Notes: a model not told the origin generated them from the letters alone. A stretch of 64,000 nt of DNA from an uncultured Bacteroidales bacterium (GCA_937926785.1 CALBBQ010000013.1:3209-67208); one strand, 5' to 3'. Positions 16,937 through 25,677 are shown, numbered from the stretch's first letter. Numbers and translations: made by a program.

Positions 16937-17686
16937 ATGCAAATCGCTTTACTTTCGCTAAATACGCTATACATCATACACATCTTTGTATTATTGTTAG
17001 CAATTGCATACCTAATACTATCCCGTCGAAGACTTAAGCGTACAGTGCTCAGGTACGAGCAACAAATGTTGCTTTCACAGATGAATCCCCATTTCGTGTT
17101 CAACTCGCTAACTGCCATTCAAAGTTTTATTTTCCGTAACGAGCCCCATACGGCAAGTAAGTACCTTGCAAGTTTTGCTAAGCTTACCAGACTTATTCTT
17201 GAAAACTCCAGGGCTGAACTCTGTAGTATAGAAAGGGAAATTACAACCCTTAAACTTTACCTCGATCTGCAAAAATTAAGGTTCGATAATAGGTTTGAAT
17301 ACTCTATTGAGGTTGATGAGAAGATCGACCCTTCACACATTTTAATTCCTCCCATGCTTGCACAACCCCTCATAGAGAATGCCATTGAACACGGTTTAAA
17401 TGGCATTGATTGGCCCGGAAAGATTATCATTCGATACTCAATACCTGAACCAAAGCAAGTCATCATAGAGGTTGAAGATAATGGCATAGGGATAGAAAAA
17501 TCAAAGGAAAAACAGCTATTGACAGGCAAAAAGCATAAGTCCCTGGCCACCGAGATTATCGAAGATAGAATCAGGAACTTAAAAAAACTAGGAAATTACG
17601 GAATTAAATTGAACGTTTTGGACAAAACGGTATCGTTGAAGAACGGGAAAGGCACGATTGCACGAATTGAAATTCCAATTAAGTAA
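16937..17686 (+). CDS. LytS-type histidine kinase with a single N-terminal TM and no evident sensor domain
   Basis: SQMNPHFVFNSL H-box, IPPMLAQPLIENAIEHG, VEDNGIG. Own TATATTTG at 16909-16916. Confidence 0.88.
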   Translation: MQIALLSLNTLYIIHIFVLLLAIAYLILSRRRLKRTVLRYEQQMLLSQMNPHFVFNSLTAIQSFIFRNEPHTASKYLASFAKLTRLILENSRAELCSIEREITTLKLYLDLQKLRFDNRFEYSIEVDEKIDPSHILIPPMLAQPLIENAIEHGLNGIDWPGKIIIRYSIPEPKQVIIEVEDNGIGIEKSKEKQLLTGKKHKSLATEIIEDRIRNLKKLGNYGIKLNVLDKTVSLKNGKGTIARIEIPIK

Positions 17687-18414
17687 TGGTAAAGGCAGTA
17701 ATAGTTGACGATGAAAGGCATGCAAGAGATTCTCTGGCTCAAATGCTTAATGTTTATTGCCCGGCTGTTGCCGTAACGGGTTCTGCCGATGGAATCCAGT
17801 CAGCTTATCAGCTCATCATATCCACCAAACCCGACTTGGTGTTTCTGGATATGCAGCTTGTAGATGGTCACGGTTTCGATCTTTTAAAAAAATTTGATCG
17901 CATTCCCTTCAAGGTAATCATAATCTCGGCATATCAGGAATACGCCGTTAAAGCCTTCAAGTTCAGCGCTGTTGATTACCTTCTTAAGCCTATTGACCCC
18001 GACGACCTTGCTAAAGCGGTTGACATAGCCCTTTTACAGGACTTAAACGATAAACAGCAAGAACGGCTGAATGCTCTTATTGAGAATACAAGTAATGTGA
18101 GCAAAAAGAAGAAACTGCTTGCTCTCAGAAATTCCGAAGGCACCTTTATAGTCAATACGCTGGAAATAGTTCGATGCGAGTCCAATAACAATACTACAAC
18201 ATTTGTTCTGGTGGATGGAAATAAGATTAGAGTAAACCGAACTCTCAGGGAATTTGACGAAATGCTGAACGAATGTGGATTTTTACGTTGCCACCAGTCG
18301 CACTTGGTAAATCAGATGCATATCGAGAAGATATCGCGCTTTCCATCGTCGGTAATTACCATGGACAATGGTGATGTTGTTCCGGTATCTTTTCGAAAAA
18401 GGAAATCATTATGA
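17686..18414 (+). CDS. LytTR-family response regulator
   Basis: VIVDDE, LVFLDMQL, AVDYLLKP and C-terminal FLRCHQSHLVN. 1-bp overlap with the kinase. Confidence 0.92.
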   Translation: MVKAVIVDDERHARDSLAQMLNVYCPAVAVTGSADGIQSAYQLIISTKPDLVFLDMQLVDGHGFDLLKKFDRIPFKVIIISAYQEYAVKAFKFSAVDYLLKPIDPDDLAKAVDIALLQDLNDKQQERLNALIENTSNVSKKKKLLALRNSEGTFIVNTLEIVRCESNNNTTTFVLVDGNKIRVNRTLREFDEMLNECGFLRCHQSHLVNQMHIEKISRFPSSVITMDNGDVVPVSFRKRKSL

Positions 18415-18436: not shown

Positions 18437-18515
18437 GTTAACCTTAAGTTAACATTGCGTTAGCTTAAAGGTAAAATTAAAGTGGTCATTCTTACATTAC
18501 GTGGAGATAACTTTG
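18437..18515 (+). promoter_or_regulatory. Four 11-bp-period repeats (candidate Pho box) plus -7 promoter element of the phosphate transporter
   Basis: GTTAAC 18437, GTTAAC 18448, GTTAGC 18459, GGTAAA 18470; TAACTTTG at 18508-18515. Confidence 0.7.
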
Positions 18516-18534
18516 CACTGCAAATTTTTACACA

Positions 18535-20769
18535 ATGGAAACATACTATTTATTCATCGTAGGAATCCTCTTCTTACTTGCCATTTCGGACCTAATGGTG
18601 GGTGTTGCAAACGACGCTGTTAACTTCCTTAACTCAGCCATTGGTTCAAAGGTTGCAAGCCGGCACTGGATTCTGCTGGTAGCATCAGCAGGAGTTCTGG
18701 TAGGGTCACTGTTTTCAAGCGGCATGATGGAAGTTGCCCGGAAAGGCGTGTTCCGGCCTGAAAATTTCTACTTCAGCGAGATGATGGTAATTTTCCTTGC
18801 CGTTATGATTACCGATGTCATAGTCCTTGACTTTTTTAATACATTCGGCCTACCAACATCCACAACCGTGTCGTTAGTATTTGAGCTTTTAGGCTCAGCT
18901 GTTGCTGTTTCCCTTTACAAAATCATGAATACCCAAGGTGAAACTATAGCAAACCTGGGGAACTACATCAATAGCGGTAAGGCTTTGGCAATTATATCGG
19001 GTATTCTCAGCTCAGTTGTTGTGGCTTTCATTGTAGGTATGGTAGTTCAATACATCGCTCGCCTACTGTTTAGCTTTAACTACCAAAAAAATCTTAAGCT
19101 TGTTGGAGGTATATGGGGTGGGTTTGCCATGACAGCTATTACCTACTTCATCGTGATGAAAGGAATAAAGGACACACCAATAATCCCCAAATACATTTTA
19201 AATTACATATCGGCAAACACCTTTATCATCTTACTTTATAGCTTTGCTATATGGACAACTATATTTCAAGCACTTGTCAGCCTCTTTAAGGTGAACGTGC
19301 TGCGGATAATTGTGCTAATGGGTACTTTTGCCCTTGCACTCTCTTTTGCAGGGAATGATCTGGTTAACTTTATTGGGGTTTCAATGGCAGGTTTAAAAGC
19401 TTACCAGATCCACATGGCAAATCCTGATGTAGCCCCTGATGCACTTAGGATGACAGAACTTGCCGGAGAAGTTAGCACGAACTTTATTTACCTGTTCATA
19501 GCCGGCCTAATAATGGTTATTACCCTTTGGGCTTCGCGAAAAGCCAGAACTGTTACGGATACGGAAGTAGGCCTTGCCCGACAGGATAGCGGAATGGAAC
19601 GATTTGGCAGCACACAGTTTTCGCGAATCATTGTTCGTGTGGCTCTTAGGTTTTCGAAGCGAGTGGATAAAATCACCCCACGTGTTGTTCGCAAATTTGT
19701 GGCAAAGCAGTTTGATACCAGTAGGGCGCCCAAGTATTCGAACCCAAAGGAAGCCCCATCGTTCGATTTGGTTCGCGCTTCGGTTAACATGGTAATGGCT
19801 AGCATTCTGATCAGCTCCGCTACAGCTTTAAAACTTCCTCTCTCAACCACCTACGTTACCTTTATGGTAGCCATGGGTACATCGCTCAGCGATAAGGCCT
19901 GGGGGCGCGAAAGCGCTGTTTACCGTATAACGGGAGTTATTACAGTTATTGCAGGTTGGTTTTTCACTGCTTTAATAACATTCACTCTTGCATTTGCAAT
20001 TGCCACTGCCCTATACTTTGGGAAAGGAATTGCATTGTTCATTCTAATCGTCTTTGCTATTGTCTCAATAATAAAAACGAATCTTTTACACCGAAAGAAA
20101 AGCCAGAAGTTACTGGAAGATGAAGCAATTGACAATGCCAGTATTGTTAACAAGTGTACCAATGAACTTCGCAGGTACCTCAAGCAATCCATTAGGGTAT
20201 TCAATCGCACAATCGATGGCCTAACCACCGAGAATCGGCGCCAGCTCAAGGAGGTTAACGAGGAGGTGGAGACCCTTAACATGGAGGCCAAGCAGATGAA
20301 GTACAATGTTTTCAACGTACTAAAACAACTCGAAGCCGATTCCATTGAAACGGGTCACTACTACGTTCAGGTGATAGACTACCTCCGTGAACTTGCACAC
20401 TCACTCGAGTTCGTCTCTCGTCCAAGTTTACAGCATGTCGAAAACAATCACAAAGGTTTAACCCGCGAGCAGGCTGCAGAGCTAAAAGAGCTTAGCAACC
20501 AGCTTTCAGAACTTTTCGACGATATACTTTTCATGATTAAGCAAAACGATTACACCTGGGTACCTGATGCGGTTAAAAAGCAACAGGATATCATGGAAGA
20601 ACTGAATAAGATTAGAAAAAAACAGGTTAAGCGAATTAAGCAGGGTGAAACCGGAACCCGTAACAGCGTTCTTTATTTAGGTTTACTCAATGAAATTAAA
20701 AACCTGTTGCTCCATACTATCAACATTCTAAAAGCTCAGCGCGACTTCATTCTGAATAATATTGAGTAG
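18535..20769 (+). CDS. Inorganic phosphate transporter (PiT family) with C-terminal PhoU-like helical domain
   Basis: PiT signatures GVANDAVNFLNSAIGS and FAGNDLVNFIG, GLPTSTT, LPLSTTYVTF, then about 230 aa of soluble helical tail. Confidence 0.9.
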   Translation: METYYLFIVGILFLLAISDLMVGVANDAVNFLNSAIGSKVASRHWILLVASAGVLVGSLFSSGMMEVARKGVFRPENFYFSEMMVIFLAVMITDVIVLDFFNTFGLPTSTTVSLVFELLGSAVAVSLYKIMNTQGETIANLGNYINSGKALAIISGILSSVVVAFIVGMVVQYIARLLFSFNYQKNLKLVGGIWGGFAMTAITYFIVMKGIKDTPIIPKYILNYISANTFIILLYSFAIWTTIFQALVSLFKVNVLRIIVLMGTFALALSFAGNDLVNFIGVSMAGLKAYQIHMANPDVAPDALRMTELAGEVSTNFIYLFIAGLIMVITLWASRKARTVTDTEVGLARQDSGMERFGSTQFSRIIVRVALRFSKRVDKITPRVVRKFVAKQFDTSRAPKYSNPKEAPSFDLVRASVNMVMASILISSATALKLPLSTTYVTFMVAMGTSLSDKAWGRESAVYRITGVITVIAGWFFTALITFTLAFAIATALYFGKGIALFILIVFAIVSIIKTNLLHRKKSQKLLEDEAIDNASIVNKCTNELRRYLKQSIRVFNRTIDGLTTENRRQLKEVNEEVETLNMEAKQMKYNVFNVLKQLEADSIETGHYYVQVIDYLRELAHSLEFVSRPSLQHVENNHKGLTREQAAELKELSNQLSELFDDILFMIKQNDYTWVPDAVKKQQDIMEELNKIRKKQVKRIKQGETGTRNSVLYLGLLNEIKNLLLHTINILKAQRDFILNNIE

Positions 20770-20788
20770 CATTACCTCTAAAAACAAG

Positions 20789-20815
20789 AAAACCACAGCA
20801 CTTTGCTGTGGTTTT
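20789..20815. terminator. Bidirectional terminator between PiT and hemerythrin
   Basis: AAAACCACAGCA-CTT-TGCTGTGGTTTT, with A/T tracts on both sides. Confidence 0.8.
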
Positions 20816-20831
20816 TTACTATAAACGCTTT

Positions 20832-21236
20832 TTAAGCCAATGTGAATTTTTTGAAATGCTCCTCGTACGCCTTATCGGATTTTGCTATATGGTTTAGCAG
20901 CCAGTCTCGTAAAAAGGTTAATACGTCAGGCGCAATGGAACTATTACTGCTAAGATTATTTTTAAATTCAGCTACCTTTTGCTTAAAAATCTGATGCTCG
21001 CGGGAATGCTCTGCCCCCATGGCATAGTTGGTAACTCTGAAATAAGTTTCCTCCCTATTGAAGTGGAAAATCGTGTACTTTTCAAGCTCCTCAATCGCGC
21101 TACCTATAATTTCCTTACCCTTACCCTTTGCCATGGCTTCAAATAGCTGGTTGATCAGGTCAAAAAGTTTCTGATGATCCTCGTCAATACTCTTAACGGA
21201 TACGCTTAGCTCAGGTTTCCAGACTGCTATTTTCAT
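20832..21236 (-). CDS. Bacteriohemerythrin
   Basis: WKPELSVSVKSIDEDHQKL, HFNREE, HSREH and WLLNHIAKSD supply the complete di-iron ligand set. Confidence 0.92.
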   Translation of the reverse strand: MKIAVWKPELSVSVKSIDEDHQKLFDLINQLFEAMAKGKGKEIIGSAIEELEKYTIFHFNREETYFRVTNYAMGAEHSREHQIFKQKVAEFKNNLSSNSSIAPDVLTFLRDWLLNHIAKSDKAYEEHFKKFTLA

Positions 21237-21325
21237 ATCGATATAAACTTAAGTTCGTTAAATAAATGTTTCGAGTTAACATCAAGCAAAGATACATGAA
21301 AGGATAAATGAATATGAGCTTTTAG

Positions 21326-22018
21326 CTAGGAGGTAAACTTGTAGCCAACCCCTTTGACAGTCTTTATGTATTCTTCGCCCAGCTTTTCCCTGAGCTTGCG
21401 GATATGAACATCAATGGTGCGATCACCTACTACAATATCGTCGCCCCACACAGCCTGGTAAATTTCATCGCGGGTGAACACCTTCTGGGGTTTGCTGTAA
21501 AGCAAAGCCAGCAACTCAAATTCCTTTTTAGGAAGTGAAAACTCCTGACCATTCAGGTAAACCACATATCGTTCTTTATCAATAAAAATACCTTCAGTAG
21601 GTACAGCTTCGGATTCAGCAGATTCAGCGAGATGCCCTCCACTCCTTTTTAGCAAGGCCTTTATGCGGCTTATAAGAACCTTTGGCTTTATTGGTTTAGT
21701 AATATAATCATCGCCACCCGCATCAAAACCTGCAATCTGGCTATAGTCCTCGCTTCGTGCAGTTAGAAATGCTATCAACGTGTTCTTGGTGGCAGGTTGA
21801 TTCCTAAGCTCCTCGCAGGTTTCCATACCATCCATATCGGGCATCATCACATCAAGCAATATCAGGTGTGGTTTAAAGCTCAGCGTTTTTTCAATTGCTA
21901 AACGGCCATTTGAGGCAGAATCGACTTGAAACCCTTCCTTTTTTAAATTGTAACTTAAAAATTCAACAATGTCTGGTTCATCGTCAACAACCAGAATTCG
22001 ATACTTCGATGTATCCAT
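21326..22018 (-). CDS. OmpR/PhoB-family response regulator (PhoP-like)
   Basis: ILVVDDEPDI, LLDVMMPDMDG, DDYITKP, winged helix KEFELL..DRTIDVHIRKLREKLG..IKTVKGVGY. Confidence 0.92.
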   Translation of the reverse strand: MDTSKYRILVVDDEPDIVEFLSYNLKKEGFQVDSASNGRLAIEKTLSFKPHLILLDVMMPDMDGMETCEELRNQPATKNTLIAFLTARSEDYSQIAGFDAGGDDYITKPIKPKVLISRIKALLKRSGGHLAESAESEAVPTEGIFIDKERYVVYLNGQEFSLPKKEFELLALLYSKPQKVFTRDEIYQAVWGDDIVVGDRTIDVHIRKLREKLGEEYIKTVKGVGYKFTS

Positions 22019-22040
22019 ACTTTATAGATATTTAGATTCA

Positions 22041-22169
22041 CAAATATATAACCGTGCAGTAAAGTACCAAGTTAATTATAAGCTAACAATTAAGCAAGTA
22101 CATTCAGGTTACGTTAACAAAAGCGTAACATTTACTTAAAGTTCATGCCATTTAATGTGCCTTACTTTG
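22041..22169. promoter_or_regulatory. Divergent promoter region with two sets of 11-bp-spaced TAAC boxes
   Basis: Minus-strand TATATTTG (22048-22041) with boxes at 22071 and 22082. Plus-strand boxes GTTAAC 22113, CGTAAC 22124, CTTAAA 22135 and a -7 variant TTACTTTG at 22162. Confidence 0.65.
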
Positions 22170-22205
22170 CAGCGTAAAATATACAGAGGTAACAAGAACT
22201 ACAAT

Positions 22206-25019
22206 ATGATAAAGTTGGCTAATTTTAAACAGGTTTTGCTCCTCGTGTTGGGGCTTTTCGTTTTTTTTAAGGCAGTTGCACAAAAAGGTTCCATAGAGGG
22301 TGTTGTATTCGACAAAGTTAGAAACGAGACACTGGTTGGTGCTAATGTGATAATTGAGGGTACCACCATGGGTACCATTACCGACTTCGATGGCAGATTC
22401 TTACTTCCCAACCTAGCACCCGGGACATACAACGTGCTAATCTCCTTTATTTCTTATCAACCAGTTGTACTCCAATCGATTAAGGTTGAAGCCAATAAAA
22501 GTACTGTCATCAAAGCAGAGCTGCAAGAAATCACAACTGCAATTGAAGGTGTTACCGTAACTGCAGCGCGAAAAACCAACACCGAGATGGCCATGATCAG
22601 TACAATTAAAGCCAGCCTAACAGTGGCCAGCGGTATCTCTGCCCAACAGATTACCCGTTCCCAAGATCGCGATGCTTCAGAGGTAATCCGCCGTGTGCCC
22701 GGCGTTTCAATTATCGACGACCGATTTGTGGTTGTACGAGGGTTAAACCAGCGATACAACAACGCCTGGATAAACAATGCCTCTACCCCATCGAGCGAAG
22801 CCGACCAGAAGGCTTTCTCATTTGATGTTATTCCTAGTGCCATGATTGATAACATGGTGATATACAAAAGCCCTTCGCCTGAACTTCCGGCCGACTTTAC
22901 CGGTGGTTTCATTAAAATCTTTACTAAAAACATGCCTGAAGAAGATTTCTTCAGCATTGGTTACACAACCGGATACAATACCAGTACCGATTACCAGAAT
23001 GTAAAACTGATTACCAGGTCAAGCACCGATTGGTTGGGATACGATAATGGAACCCGAAACTTACCTGAAAAATTCCCATCTACCCTGAAAGGATTAACAA
23101 ACACTCAGCTGGCCAACTATGGTAAAATGCTGAATTCCTACTGGGCCCCCAATAGTGTAAATGCTTATCCCGATCAAAAAGCGAATGTTTCATTTGGCAA
23201 GAAATGGCAAAAAGGAAACCGACGACTAGGTAATATTACATCAATCACGTATAGTAATACCTACGAAACCGATGCCTTGCTGAATAAAGGGTATCAGGTG
23301 CAGCTTGCGCCAGGAATAAATCCTCCTCTTAACTTTGATTTTGTGGATAGTACCTACGTACAAAACGTAAAGATAGGCTTACTCCACAACTGGTCGTTAT
23401 TCACTGGCAAATCCAGTAAGATTGAGTTTCGTAACCTTTTCAACCTTATCGCAAAAAATAAAACAATTGTACGCAATGGATATAGCGGCTACGAAGGTTA
23501 CACCATTCGGTCGTACCAGGATAACTTCATGAACCGAACCACATACTCAACCCAGCTTGGAGGTGAGCACCGCTGGGGGGAGAACAGCAATAACAAGATC
23601 GATTGGATAGTAGGGTATGCGCTTTCGTACCGAAACGAGCCCGACCTTAAGCAACTCCGAACCACCCTTCAGGATGAGCCACTACTACCACACTACAATG
23701 AGTACTATGCTGGTATTGGCCTAACCCCATCGGTGAGCGATGCCGGCAGGCTTTACATGAAACTTATAGAACATGTAACAAACGCCGGAGTTAATTTTGA
23801 GCGACAGCTAAACATAGGTAACTGGAAACCCACGCTAAAGTCCGGGATTTACAGCGAATTTAAAATGCGTAGCTTTGATGCCCGCATTCTGGGATTTGCC
23901 AAGAACTCATCATACACCGAATCGGTTTGGCTACCTATAGATAAAATCTTCAGCTTGGAAAACATAAACACAACACCCGATGGTTTCCTGCTGAAGGAAT
24001 CCACTTCAAAATCGGATTCCTACGAAGTAAACAGCCTACTCAACGCAGGCTATGCGTCCGTAAATACAAAGATTACAGAAAAATTATCAATCTTTGGGGG
24101 AATTCGGGCTGAGTGGGTTAATCAGCAGCTGAATAGTTACGACCGATACGGCATGCCCATTACCGCTGAAGACAAAAGCATAGACCTATTCCCTTCGGCA
24201 AACCTTACCTTTAACTTTAGCGAGAAAAATCTTCTAAGACTTGCGGCCGGTTTATCGATAAATCGCCCTGAATTCAGAGAGATTGCCCCCTTCTACTTCT
24301 ACAATTTTAATGAGGAGGCTGAGTTTGTAGGCAACCCCGACATCAAAAACTGCTACATTTGGAACTACGACCTACGTTGGGAAATATATCCAAGCTCGGG
24401 GGAAACCTTTTCCATCGGAACATTCTACAAAAAATTTAACGGGCCCATTGAGCTAATATTCAAACCTGCCGGCAATCGGTTTCTTTTTACCTATGAAAAC
24501 GCATCGGATGCTTATAGCATGGGAGTAGAAATGGATCTTCGTAAATCATTGGAATCAATAGGATTCCTCAAGAATTTCTACATTGTTGCAAACGCTGCAT
24601 ACATTCACAGCCAAGTGGTTTTCCCAAAAGAAAGTATTTTTAGAAATCGACCCATGCAGGGTCAATCGCCCTATGTGGTTAATGCAGGCATTTTTTATCA
24701 AAACGAAAAGCAGAAGCTGAGTGTTTCGGTACAGTACAACATAATTGGTGATAGAATTTTAGCCGTAGGGATTCCCTTCCAAAACCAGGAGCAGGACATT
24801 CCGGATTACTATGAAAAACACCAACACCTTCTTGATGTGACTTTAACAAAACAATTTGGCAAACACGTTGAAATTAAAGCAGGCGTAAAAAATTTGCTGA
24901 ACCAAAAGATAAATATCTACCAGCCATTTAAAGGTGACAACGGATCGGATATGAATTTGGATAATAAGATTAGCTCACCTGGAATTTCTTTTAGCATTGG
25001 AACAAGCATTAGATTTTAG
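22206..25019 (+). CDS. TonB-dependent receptor, probably phosphate-regulated
   Basis: ATG at 22206 (track starts at 22155). Signal peptide, GSIEGVVFDK..LVGANV, plug RRVPGVSII..VRGLNQRYN, NRPEFREIAPF, QGQSPYVVN and C-terminal Phe. Confidence 0.92.
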   Translation: MIKLANFKQVLLLVLGLFVFFKAVAQKGSIEGVVFDKVRNETLVGANVIIEGTTMGTITDFDGRFLLPNLAPGTYNVLISFISYQPVVLQSIKVEANKSTVIKAELQEITTAIEGVTVTAARKTNTEMAMISTIKASLTVASGISAQQITRSQDRDASEVIRRVPGVSIIDDRFVVVRGLNQRYNNAWINNASTPSSEADQKAFSFDVIPSAMIDNMVIYKSPSPELPADFTGGFIKIFTKNMPEEDFFSIGYTTGYNTSTDYQNVKLITRSSTDWLGYDNGTRNLPEKFPSTLKGLTNTQLANYGKMLNSYWAPNSVNAYPDQKANVSFGKKWQKGNRRLGNITSITYSNTYETDALLNKGYQVQLAPGINPPLNFDFVDSTYVQNVKIGLLHNWSLFTGKSSKIEFRNLFNLIAKNKTIVRNGYSGYEGYTIRSYQDNFMNRTTYSTQLGGEHRWGENSNNKIDWIVGYALSYRNEPDLKQLRTTLQDEPLLPHYNEYYAGIGLTPSVSDAGRLYMKLIEHVTNAGVNFERQLNIGNWKPTLKSGIYSEFKMRSFDARILGFAKNSSYTESVWLPIDKIFSLENINTTPDGFLLKESTSKSDSYEVNSLLNAGYASVNTKITEKLSIFGGIRAEWVNQQLNSYDRYGMPITAEDKSIDLFPSANLTFNFSEKNLLRLAAGLSINRPEFREIAPFYFYNFNEEAEFVGNPDIKNCYIWNYDLRWEIYPSSGETFSIGTFYKKFNGPIELIFKPAGNRFLFTYENASDAYSMGVEMDLRKSLESIGFLKNFYIVANAAYIHSQVVFPKESIFRNRPMQGQSPYVVNAGIFYQNEKQKLSVSVQYNIIGDRILAVGIPFQNQEQDIPDYYEKHQHLLDVTLTKQFGKHVEIKAGVKNLLNQKINIYQPFKGDNGSDMNLDNKISSPGISFSIGTSIRF

Positions 25020-25079
25020 AACTGATATAGGTTGGGATTATCAAGGAAAACCGGGTGAAGAAATTGCATCCGTTTTTTT

Positions 25080-25147
25080 ATTTACATAAACTTAACATTT
25101 ATATCATCTTATGATAATAATCAGGCAATATTTCTCCACTTACTTTG
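25080..25147 (+). promoter_or_regulatory. Degenerate in-phase TAAC boxes and -7 element upstream of the small NTE-domain gene
   Basis: TTTTAC 25080, CTTAAC 25091, TATCAT 25102, GATAAT 25113 (11-bp steps); TTACTTTG at 25140. Confidence 0.4.
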
Positions 25148-25178
25148 TGGCAGTAAAAAATTGGAAAATTTTGATAAA

Positions 25179-25526
25179 ATGAAAAAAATACTCTCACTCG
25201 CAATCATCAGTTTACTTGCCCTAAGTGCAAATGCAAAAACTGAGGACGTTAAAAAAGAAAGTTCTGCTGAACCTGCAGTAAGTAGCATGGTTCAAACCAT
25301 TCAGGGAAAGGTAGTAGATAAATCGACCGGCGAAGCCCTGGCTGGCGTTTCGGTAAAGGTTGATGACAACACGGTTGTTTACACAGATTTTGAAGGCAAC
25401 TTCACCATAAAACTATCCCAGCCTAAAGCGAAGCTCTCAGTTAGTCTTATCTCATACTCTCCGGCAGAGGTTGAGATTAGTAAAAAAGCAAAGGAAGTTA
25501 AAATTGAGCTCAAGACCATAGAATAA
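25179..25526 (+). CDS. Small exported protein made only of a carboxypeptidase-regulatory-like (SusC N-terminal extension type) domain
   Basis: ATG at 25179. Signal peptide ending ANA, IQGKVVDKSTGEALAGVSV, YTDFEGNFTI, SLISY. Confidence 0.82.
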   Translation: MKKILSLAIISLLALSANAKTEDVKKESSAEPAVSSMVQTIQGKVVDKSTGEALAGVSVKVDDNTVVYTDFEGNFTIKLSQPKAKLSVSLISYSPAEVEISKKAKEVKIELKTIE

Positions 25527-25551
25527 AACTCCACACACTGCCTGTTAAACC

Positions 25552-25585
25552 AGAGTCGGATGCTGTAATCCGGCTCTTTTTTTTT
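25552..25585 (+). terminator. Rho-independent terminator
   Basis: AGAGTCGGAT-GCTGTA-ATCCGGCTCT followed by T8. Confidence 0.8.
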
Positions 25586-25598
25586 ATCCTAAAAACCA

Positions 25599-25677
25599 GT
25601 TAACCATAATGTAACAAACTGCTAATGTAAAGCTAAACTACGCTTAACGCTTAAGTTTCTGCCAGTAGATACTTTTG
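25599..25677 (+). promoter_or_regulatory. Five 11-bp-period repeats (candidate Pho box) plus -7 element of the beta-helix lipoprotein
   Basis: GTTAAC 25599, TGTAAC 25610, GCTAAT 25621, GCTAAA 25632, CTTAAC 25643; TACTTTTG at 25670-25677. Confidence 0.72.

Follow-up and report, generated by a model that had tools for sequence, protein, structure and literature searches.

The stretch of DNA analysed here (the window, 64,000 nucleotides; GCA_937926785.1 CALBBQ010000013.1:3209-67208, i.e. contig C13:3209-67208 of genome G000, 2.77 Mb and 96% complete) comes from an uncultured Bacteroidales bacterium, and five of its promoters carry arrays of two to five 11-bp direct-repeat units, a tandem design that is a hallmark of OmpR/PhoB regulators. 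The unit consensus is cTTAACATTnn, with a period of 11 bp and a core of cTTAACATT. The arrays precede the genes of a PHO4-family phosphate transporter, a PhoB-like response regulator, a TonB-dependent receptor, a small secreted protein with a CarbopepD_reg domain and a lipoprotein. All features are listed in Table 1.

The genes of the lipoprotein, the receptor, the regulator and the transporter are clustered, an arrangement which, judging from gene order in relatives, is kept throughout the family, and the regulator gene lies near the transporter gene in many families of the order. The C-terminal parts of 16 of the 20 transporter orthologues matched the PhoU family PF01895 (best E-value 8e-8); the window transporter's own tail scored 19.8 bits, under the cut-off. 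For the lipoprotein, searches of Pfam, NCBIfam and the PDB sequences gave no match. No kinase gene stands beside the window regulator, the bacteriohemerythrin gene being found in that place, directly downstream and on the same strand, so that the two probably form a single operon. Of 29 relatives, 19 have a hemerythrin homologue inside the 1.5-kb flanks of the regulator locus, and where this was checked it lies directly downstream of the regulator gene. As for the LytTR gene, a homologue lies near the transporter in 15 of the 29 relatives' loci, in several genera, with the LytS/LytTR pair upstream.

Table 1. Genes, repeat units and -7 boxes of the locus, in window coordinates.
Feature	Position	Strand	Details
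LytS-type kinase gene	16937-17686		upstream of transporter
LytTR regulator gene	17686-18414		directly upstream of transporter array
Transporter array, four units GTTAACCTTAA GTTAACATTGC GTTAGCTTAAA GGTAAAATTAA	18437-18480	+	18437 GTTAAC, 18448 GTTAAC, 18459 GTTAGC, 18470 GGTAAA
Transporter -7 box TAACTTTG	18508-18515	+	38 nt past the start of the fourth unit
PHO4-family phosphate transporter, 744 residues	18535-20769	+	PF01384, 83.5 bits
PhoU-like C-terminal domain of transporter	20092-20766		last ~225 residues
Bacteriohemerythrin gene	20832-21236	-	NF033749, 134.6 bits
PhoB-like OmpR-family response regulator	21326-22018	-	Response_reg and Trans_reg_C domains
Regulator -7 box TATATTTG	22041-22048	-	position conserved within genus
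Regulator units GTTAGCTTATA (22087-22077) and ATTAACTTGGT (22076-22066)	22066-22087	-	39 and 28 nt before TATATTTG
Receptor array, three units	22113-22145	+	22113 GTTAAC, 22124 CGTAAC, 22135 CTTAAA
Receptor -7-like box TTACTTTG	22162-22169	+
TonB-dependent receptor	22206-25019	+	CarbopepD_reg and Plug domains; true start is the ATG at 22206; divergent from regulator
CarbopepD_reg-gene array, two units ATTTACATAAA CTTAACATTTA	25080-25101	+	25080 ATTTAC, 25091 CTTAAC
CarbopepD_reg-gene -7-like box TTACTTTG	25140-25147	+
Secreted CarbopepD_reg-domain protein, 115 residues	25179-25526	+	from domain search
Lipoprotein array, five units	25599-25653	+	25599 GTTAAC, 25610 TGTAAC, 25621 GCTAAT, 25632 GCTAAA, 25643 CTTAAC
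Lipoprotein -7 box TACTTTTG	25670-25677	+
Lipoprotein, 446 residues	25722-27062	+	clustered with regulator and transporter genes in relatives too

Repeats of this kind had been reported for this DNA in a first-pass annotation, and on re-reading the sequence all its repeat coordinates hold; the 38-nt offsets that it gave between one unit and the -7 box (18470 to 18508, 22124 to 22162, 25632 to 25670 and 25102 to 25140) are also arithmetically right. Three promoters, those of the transporter, the receptor and the lipoprotein, have a unit whose start precedes the box by 38 nt, and in the last two an extra unit precedes it by 27 nt. The array described at the fourth promoter, that of the CarbopepD_reg gene, stands for its units at 25080 and 25091 only, since 25102 (TATCAT) and 25113 (GATAAT) are not credible units. 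The retained pair, the weakest of the four arrays (17.6 bits with a matrix from relatives), starts 60 and 49 nt ahead of its box, with the register unchanged. Similarly, the pair placed at 22071 and 22082, 28 and 39 bp upstream of the regulator's own -7 box, keeps its spacing but is better read on the minus strand, from 22087 to 22066. When the sequence is divided into 11-nt blocks, every array falls into one phase with the TTTG in its -7 box.

The two TTACTTTG boxes, at 22162 and 25140, have one mismatch to TAnnTTTG; as strict matching lost several promoters, a box with one mismatch was allowed. The orientation of the units was set by their flanks, because the hexamer GTTAAC is palindromic. 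The -33 TTTG element, as read from the sequence, is absent from these array-bearing promoters.

The abundance of the units was compared with chance using a matrix made from the first two units of the orthologous transporter promoters of 25 relatives, this genome being left out (consensus of these promoters: cTTAACATTan cTTAACATTgn gtTAAnnnAAa nnTAAt). Above 20 bits, the genome contains nine adjacent pairs, where order-3 Markov simulations gave an expectation of 0.17; above 16 bits, the figures are 13 pairs vs. 1.3 expected. The best 12 pairs genome-wide are all intergenic. Among the 6,276 T[AT]nnTTTG boxes of the genome, seven are accompanied by an in-phase pair of units scoring 8 bits or more, and three of these seven are promoters of the window; when the offset was shifted by 3, 5 or 7 nt, pairs were found at 0, 0 and 1 boxes, respectively. 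A genome scan with a fixed offset to the -7 box, as the first-pass annotation had proposed, therefore indicates that the motif is not frequent at unrelated promoters.

Both the units and their geometry are conserved in relatives. The same four-unit array is present in about 25 orthologous transporter promoters, and the distance from the first TTAAC to the -7 box is 70 or 71 nt for almost every member of the family, while the intervening sequence differs. The transporter promoters of more distant genomes have two or three units, the last one being about 38 nt from the box. At the lipoprotein promoter, five units in fixed register with the -7 box were found in genera g1, g3 and g10, and a comparable array of four units in g5. 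In genera g1, g2 and g3, 11 relatives' loci retain the three units of the receptor promoter together with their register and the TTACTTTG box, and the homologue of the small CarbopepD_reg gene in G046 likewise has an upstream box. Autoregulation, which had been predicted for the regulator, is in line with its own promoter, where in-phase units are found and where the pair, 27-28 and 38-39 nt before the box, is kept in orthologues of at least three genera. Taken from their sequence and its conservation, the arrays are real, conserved features and predicted binding sites of an operator type.

The distribution of the box in relatives ties it to phosphate uptake, because it is placed at pst and pit genes. 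In three genomes (G010, G029 and G057) the box heads porin-pstS-pstC-pstA-pstB-phoU-regulator operons, with a kinase gene immediately after the regulator in G057 and a kinase-like gene further downstream in G010. In G021 and G045 it heads porin-pstSCAB-phoU operons, the sequence examined ending near phoU. In G038 and G039, pstS itself is directly preceded by the box; in G034 the box is found some 1.5 kb upstream of this gene. The idea that pstS promoters of the same family are box-free was rejected, as their box is one gene upstream, before the porin gene that heads the operon. The relatives' strongest boxes (28-32 bits) precede PitA-like genes (G010 and G021) and DUF47 plus Pit operons (G028 and G041). 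In a phylum-wide comparison with a threshold of 12 bits, counting pairs on the strand of the gene, 6 of 30 regions upstream of pstS were positive vs. none of 30 coding controls. In loci L163, L171 and L176, which belong to another family, the 11-bp repeat upstream of pstS is different (GTTACAACTTT GTCAACACTT), which suggests a variant box of that lineage.

Boxes of 25-30 bits precede the orthologues of a 371-residue outer-membrane protein. In G000 itself, the gene of this secreted protein (C8:66270-67467) is preceded by the genome's best box (27.6 bits), together with a second pair, and boxes are kept at its orthologues in G001 and G004. No family match was obtained for this C8 protein, and its pairwise similarity to a pst-operon porin is faint (E-value 7e-4).

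Concerning the regulator, the OmpR/PhoB type assigned to it earlier is borne out by its best NCBIfam models, which are the two PhoB models. The genome has two full-length OmpR-type regulators, of which the window protein is the better PhoB match; the other (contig C34) is in an operon with its own kinase. The regulator linked to pst-phoU in G057 has the window regulator as its best match in this genome (59% identity) and is in turn a best hit of the window regulator, so that the match is reciprocal. A tree places the window regulator together with the proteins of G057 and G041, the C34 protein very far from them, and the pst-linked regulator copies of genus g4 in a long-branched side group. 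A search of the PDB sequences with the regulator returned MtrA and RegX3 first and is uninformative on specificity.

A PhoR-like kinase of 352 residues is encoded far from the regulator, alone after a riboflavin-synthase-like gene (C5:232902-233960). It is the best match in this genome of the pst-linked kinase of G057 (53% identity). In G041, the orthologous regulator and kinase genes are in one operon, which adjoins the boxed pit operon. Curated family cut-offs classify neither the regulator nor the kinase.

We read the arrays as Pho boxes for the phosphorylated form of the PhoB-type regulator (21326-22018), which would activate phosphate-uptake genes at low phosphate, and give this reading a probability of roughly 0.76. 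The identity of the binding protein, its action as an activator and not a repressor, and the role of phosphate as signal are what we infer here. When phosphate is low, the PhoR-like kinase would phosphorylate the regulator, whose monomers would bind head to tail, one per 11-bp unit, on a single face of the helix. The well-matched distal core units would nucleate binding, and monomers would then spread cooperatively over the weaker proximal units. The proximal monomer, whose unit starts 38 or 27 nt ahead of the -7 box, would recruit RNA polymerase at these promoters that have no -33 TTTG.

Within the window, the regulator is predicted to act on the genes of the PHO4-PhoU fusion transporter, the receptor and the 446-residue lipoprotein and on the regulator-hemerythrin operon, and probably on the small CarbopepD_reg gene too. 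Because the regulator's promoter has two units, the regulator-hemerythrin operon would be under positive autoregulation, that is, positive feedback. The phosphate-starvation regulon put forward in the first-pass annotation thus finds support, the boxed genes centring on phosphate uptake and the relatives' boxes heading pst operons and Pit genes. It is possible, though doubtful, that in this Pst-less genus the PHO4 transporter signals through its PhoU-like domain to the unlinked PhoR-like kinase, with hemerythrin adding an oxygen or iron input.

Several observations weigh against the Pho-box reading. The genome, when searched, has neither pstSCAB nor a stand-alone phoU, and the classical phosphate-sensing route is therefore absent: the best score for pstB in the genome was 150 bits vs. 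a cut-off of 343, and no PstS-type binding protein was found in it or across the eight genomes of genus g1. The pstSCAB and phoU genes that had been expected under the box are thus missing here, although they are boxed in relatives. The phosphatase that had also been expected did not materialise: the site of the only alkaline phosphatase (PF00245) scores 8.5 bits, and no box was found upstream of it in 28 relatives, so that this gene, even with a site in phase, was rejected as a regulon member. Two Na/Pi cotransporters with PhoU domains (on C28 and C9) have no box, and some strong sites precede genes without an obvious phosphate role, e.g. rseC/rnf and dnaA. At the protein level, the regulator scores 218.9 bits against NF053854 (Bacteroidetes PhoB), under the cut-off of 270, the pst-phoU-linked regulators of relatives being lower still (173 and 204 bits), and the best models of the C5 kinase, PnpS and PhoR, are below their cut-offs. 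Finally, the apparent co-transcription of the regulator with hemerythrin hints at an oxygen or iron input, and the conserved LytS/LytTR pair also lies upstream of the transporter.

The best-surviving alternative keeps the regulator and the box and changes the signal to oxygen, redox or iron, the boxed genes then being an ArcA-like global regulon that includes phosphate transporters. It would account for the bacteriohemerythrin gene after the regulator and at most relatives' regulator loci (the 19 of 29 given above), as well as for the absence of the Pst/PhoU sensing module from the genome; moreover, the PhoP motif of Riemerella anatipestifer has been likened to the ArcA box and that regulator tied to aerotolerance (PMC9603813). 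Nevertheless, the order's strongest and most conserved targets are pstSCAB-phoU, three kinds of Pit/PHO4 genes and the pst-operon porins, and the kinase's best models are phosphate sensors. A signal other than phosphate thus appears unlikely.

Regulators of the LytTR family bind repeats that contain GTT and are separated by two helical turns, and their sites consist of two 9-bp repeats about 21 bp apart (12-13 bp between them). The arrays, or at least that of the transporter, might then be bound by the LytTR-type regulator of 17686-18414, whose gene and LytS partner are upstream of the transporter in the loci of several genera (15 of 29 relatives). In our own reading, the AgrA-type consensus is partly matched by the first and third units of this array, and a site on contig C37 adjoins another LytTR regulator gene. 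Yet the period is 11 bp, with three to five contiguous units in place of two spaced repeats; the relatives' units read CTTAAC, the GTT of the LytTR consensus being lost; promoters of pst, pit, lipoprotein and regulator genes have the box and no neighbouring LytTR gene; and the C37 site reads best toward a protease gene. Binding by this regulator is, on balance, highly improbable. As for chance or composition, i.e. A/T-rich, UP-element-like intergenic DNA with no dedicated regulator, the looseness of the earlier hexamer definition and the two discarded units at 25102 and 25113 speak for it, but it is effectively refuted by the clear excess over the Markov simulations and phase-shift controls, by units and spacing that are kept among genera while the spacers drift, and by the confinement of the arrays to few promoters.

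The proposed Pho boxes can be compared with those of other phyla. Bacillus subtilis PhoP boxes are TT(A/T/C)ACA repeats with spacers of about 5 bp. The cyanobacterial SphR/PhoB box is PyTTAAPyPy(T/A) (PMC10976474). Like both, the present box has a TTAAC-type core, an 11-bp period and at least two tandem units, and the starvation regulons of Bacillus and cyanobacteria include pst; unlike both, which belong to other phyla with other sigma factors, it is phased to the Bacteroidota TAnnTTTG box and, in this genome, would govern a regulon without pst. The Pho unit of Escherichia coli is CTGTCATAWAW. The Pho box bound by E. coli PhoB consists of two 11-bp direct repeats (PMC9306846). Both systems have 11-bp repeats in place of the upstream promoter element, an autoregulated phoB (here a predicted one) and pstS as a target (here in relatives), whereas the arrays described here have up to five units, the kinase gene lies apart from the regulator gene and PstSCAB-PhoU is missing. 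The CTGTCAT of E. coli and the TTAACAT found here differ at 3 of 7 positions and can be aligned, in our own alignment, over a T..CAT core and an A/T tract. That the motif is unlike the E. coli box, as was first suggested, is therefore overstated: it shares this core, is near the Bacillus and cyanobacterial boxes and equals the Riemerella core. The ArcA box consists of TGTTAA repeats and the CtrA box is TTAA-N7-TTAAC. Both are recognised by OmpR-family regulators and have TTAAC-type half-sites 11 bp apart, as here, but ArcA responds to redox and CtrA to the cell cycle, in Proteobacteria and with other target sets.

The operators of Streptomyces coelicolor PhoP are made of two to six direct 11-nt units, a conserved core with degenerate extension units that are filled cooperatively (PMC2275107). 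The strong-to-weak gradient of the units seen here is similar, in contrast to the G/C-rich consensus of that protein, GG/TTCAYYYRG/CG (PMC2275107). Within the phylum, the motif of R. anatipestifer PhoP, obtained by sequencing of affinity-purified DNA (DAP-seq), is TTTAACA, and its binding to its own promoter was confirmed by electrophoretic mobility shift assay (PMC9603813). The PhoPR genes are up-regulated on phosphate starvation, and among the promoters bound by PhoP are those of a TonB-dependent receptor and of a beta-barrel protein of the outer membrane (PMC9603813). The resemblance to the present system extends to the OmpR/PhoB family, to the TTTAACA motif, which equals the core found here, and to sites at the regulator's own and TonB-receptor promoters; it is a likeness of motif and targets. 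Riemerella, however, belongs to the Flavobacteriales, its PhoP had 583 peaks and was framed as a global virulence and aerotolerance regulator, and the study described no phased 11-bp arrays, no -7 geometry and no regulon centred on pst or pit (PMC9603813). The PhoB of Bacteroides fragilis binds the pst promoter, shifting a 512-bp pstC fragment, in a study that defined no box (PMC3547664). In phosphate-depleted Flavobacterium, TonB-dependent transporters and unknown lipoproteins are induced, with no motif reported (PMC8115612), a set which fits the gene content of the present locus.

The proposed switch is of an ordinary kind; what is new is its geometry, fixed in phase with the Bacteroidota -7 box, and a regulon from which Pst is absent. 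A limited search of the open literature found no operator model of this kind for the Bacteroidales. The model that follows from the arrays, cTTAACATTnn repeated every 11 bp, one unit having its start 38 nt ahead of TAnnTTTG, would make the Pho regulons of gut and environmental Bacteroidota predictable from sequence, including the TonB-dependent receptors and unknown lipoproteins whose induction on phosphate depletion was seen by proteomics. It also describes a lineage which retains the regulator and its box after the loss of Pst and PhoU, and this raises the question of how phosphate is sensed.

Other boxes were found elsewhere in G000. A top-scoring array, with four units, lies on contig C36 (C36:8150-9079) by tatA and a porin-like gene cut at the contig end; this short contig, A/T-rich by eye, may come from another organism, and the array is not relied on as evidence. 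On the minus strand of C37 (33423-33505), three units (TTTAACACTCT CTTAACAATGT CTTAACAGTCA) adjoin a DnaA-box-like sequence (TTATCAACA) roughly 240 nt ahead of dnaA. Members of the genus and several further genera have a similar pair at this position, and the site could connect phosphate status with replication, or it could belong to the origin region and have nothing to do with phosphate. Finally, two convergent genes on C26 (C26:7640-10578) have a box before each of them. The first, which has a unit 38 nt ahead of a -7 box identical to that of the lipoprotein (TACTTTTG), codes for a glycosyltransferase of the PMT_2 type (family 39), and the second for a protein of 405 residues with a weak, sub-cut-off match to CehA/McbA metallohydrolases; these boxed genes might serve envelope remodelling under phosphate stress.

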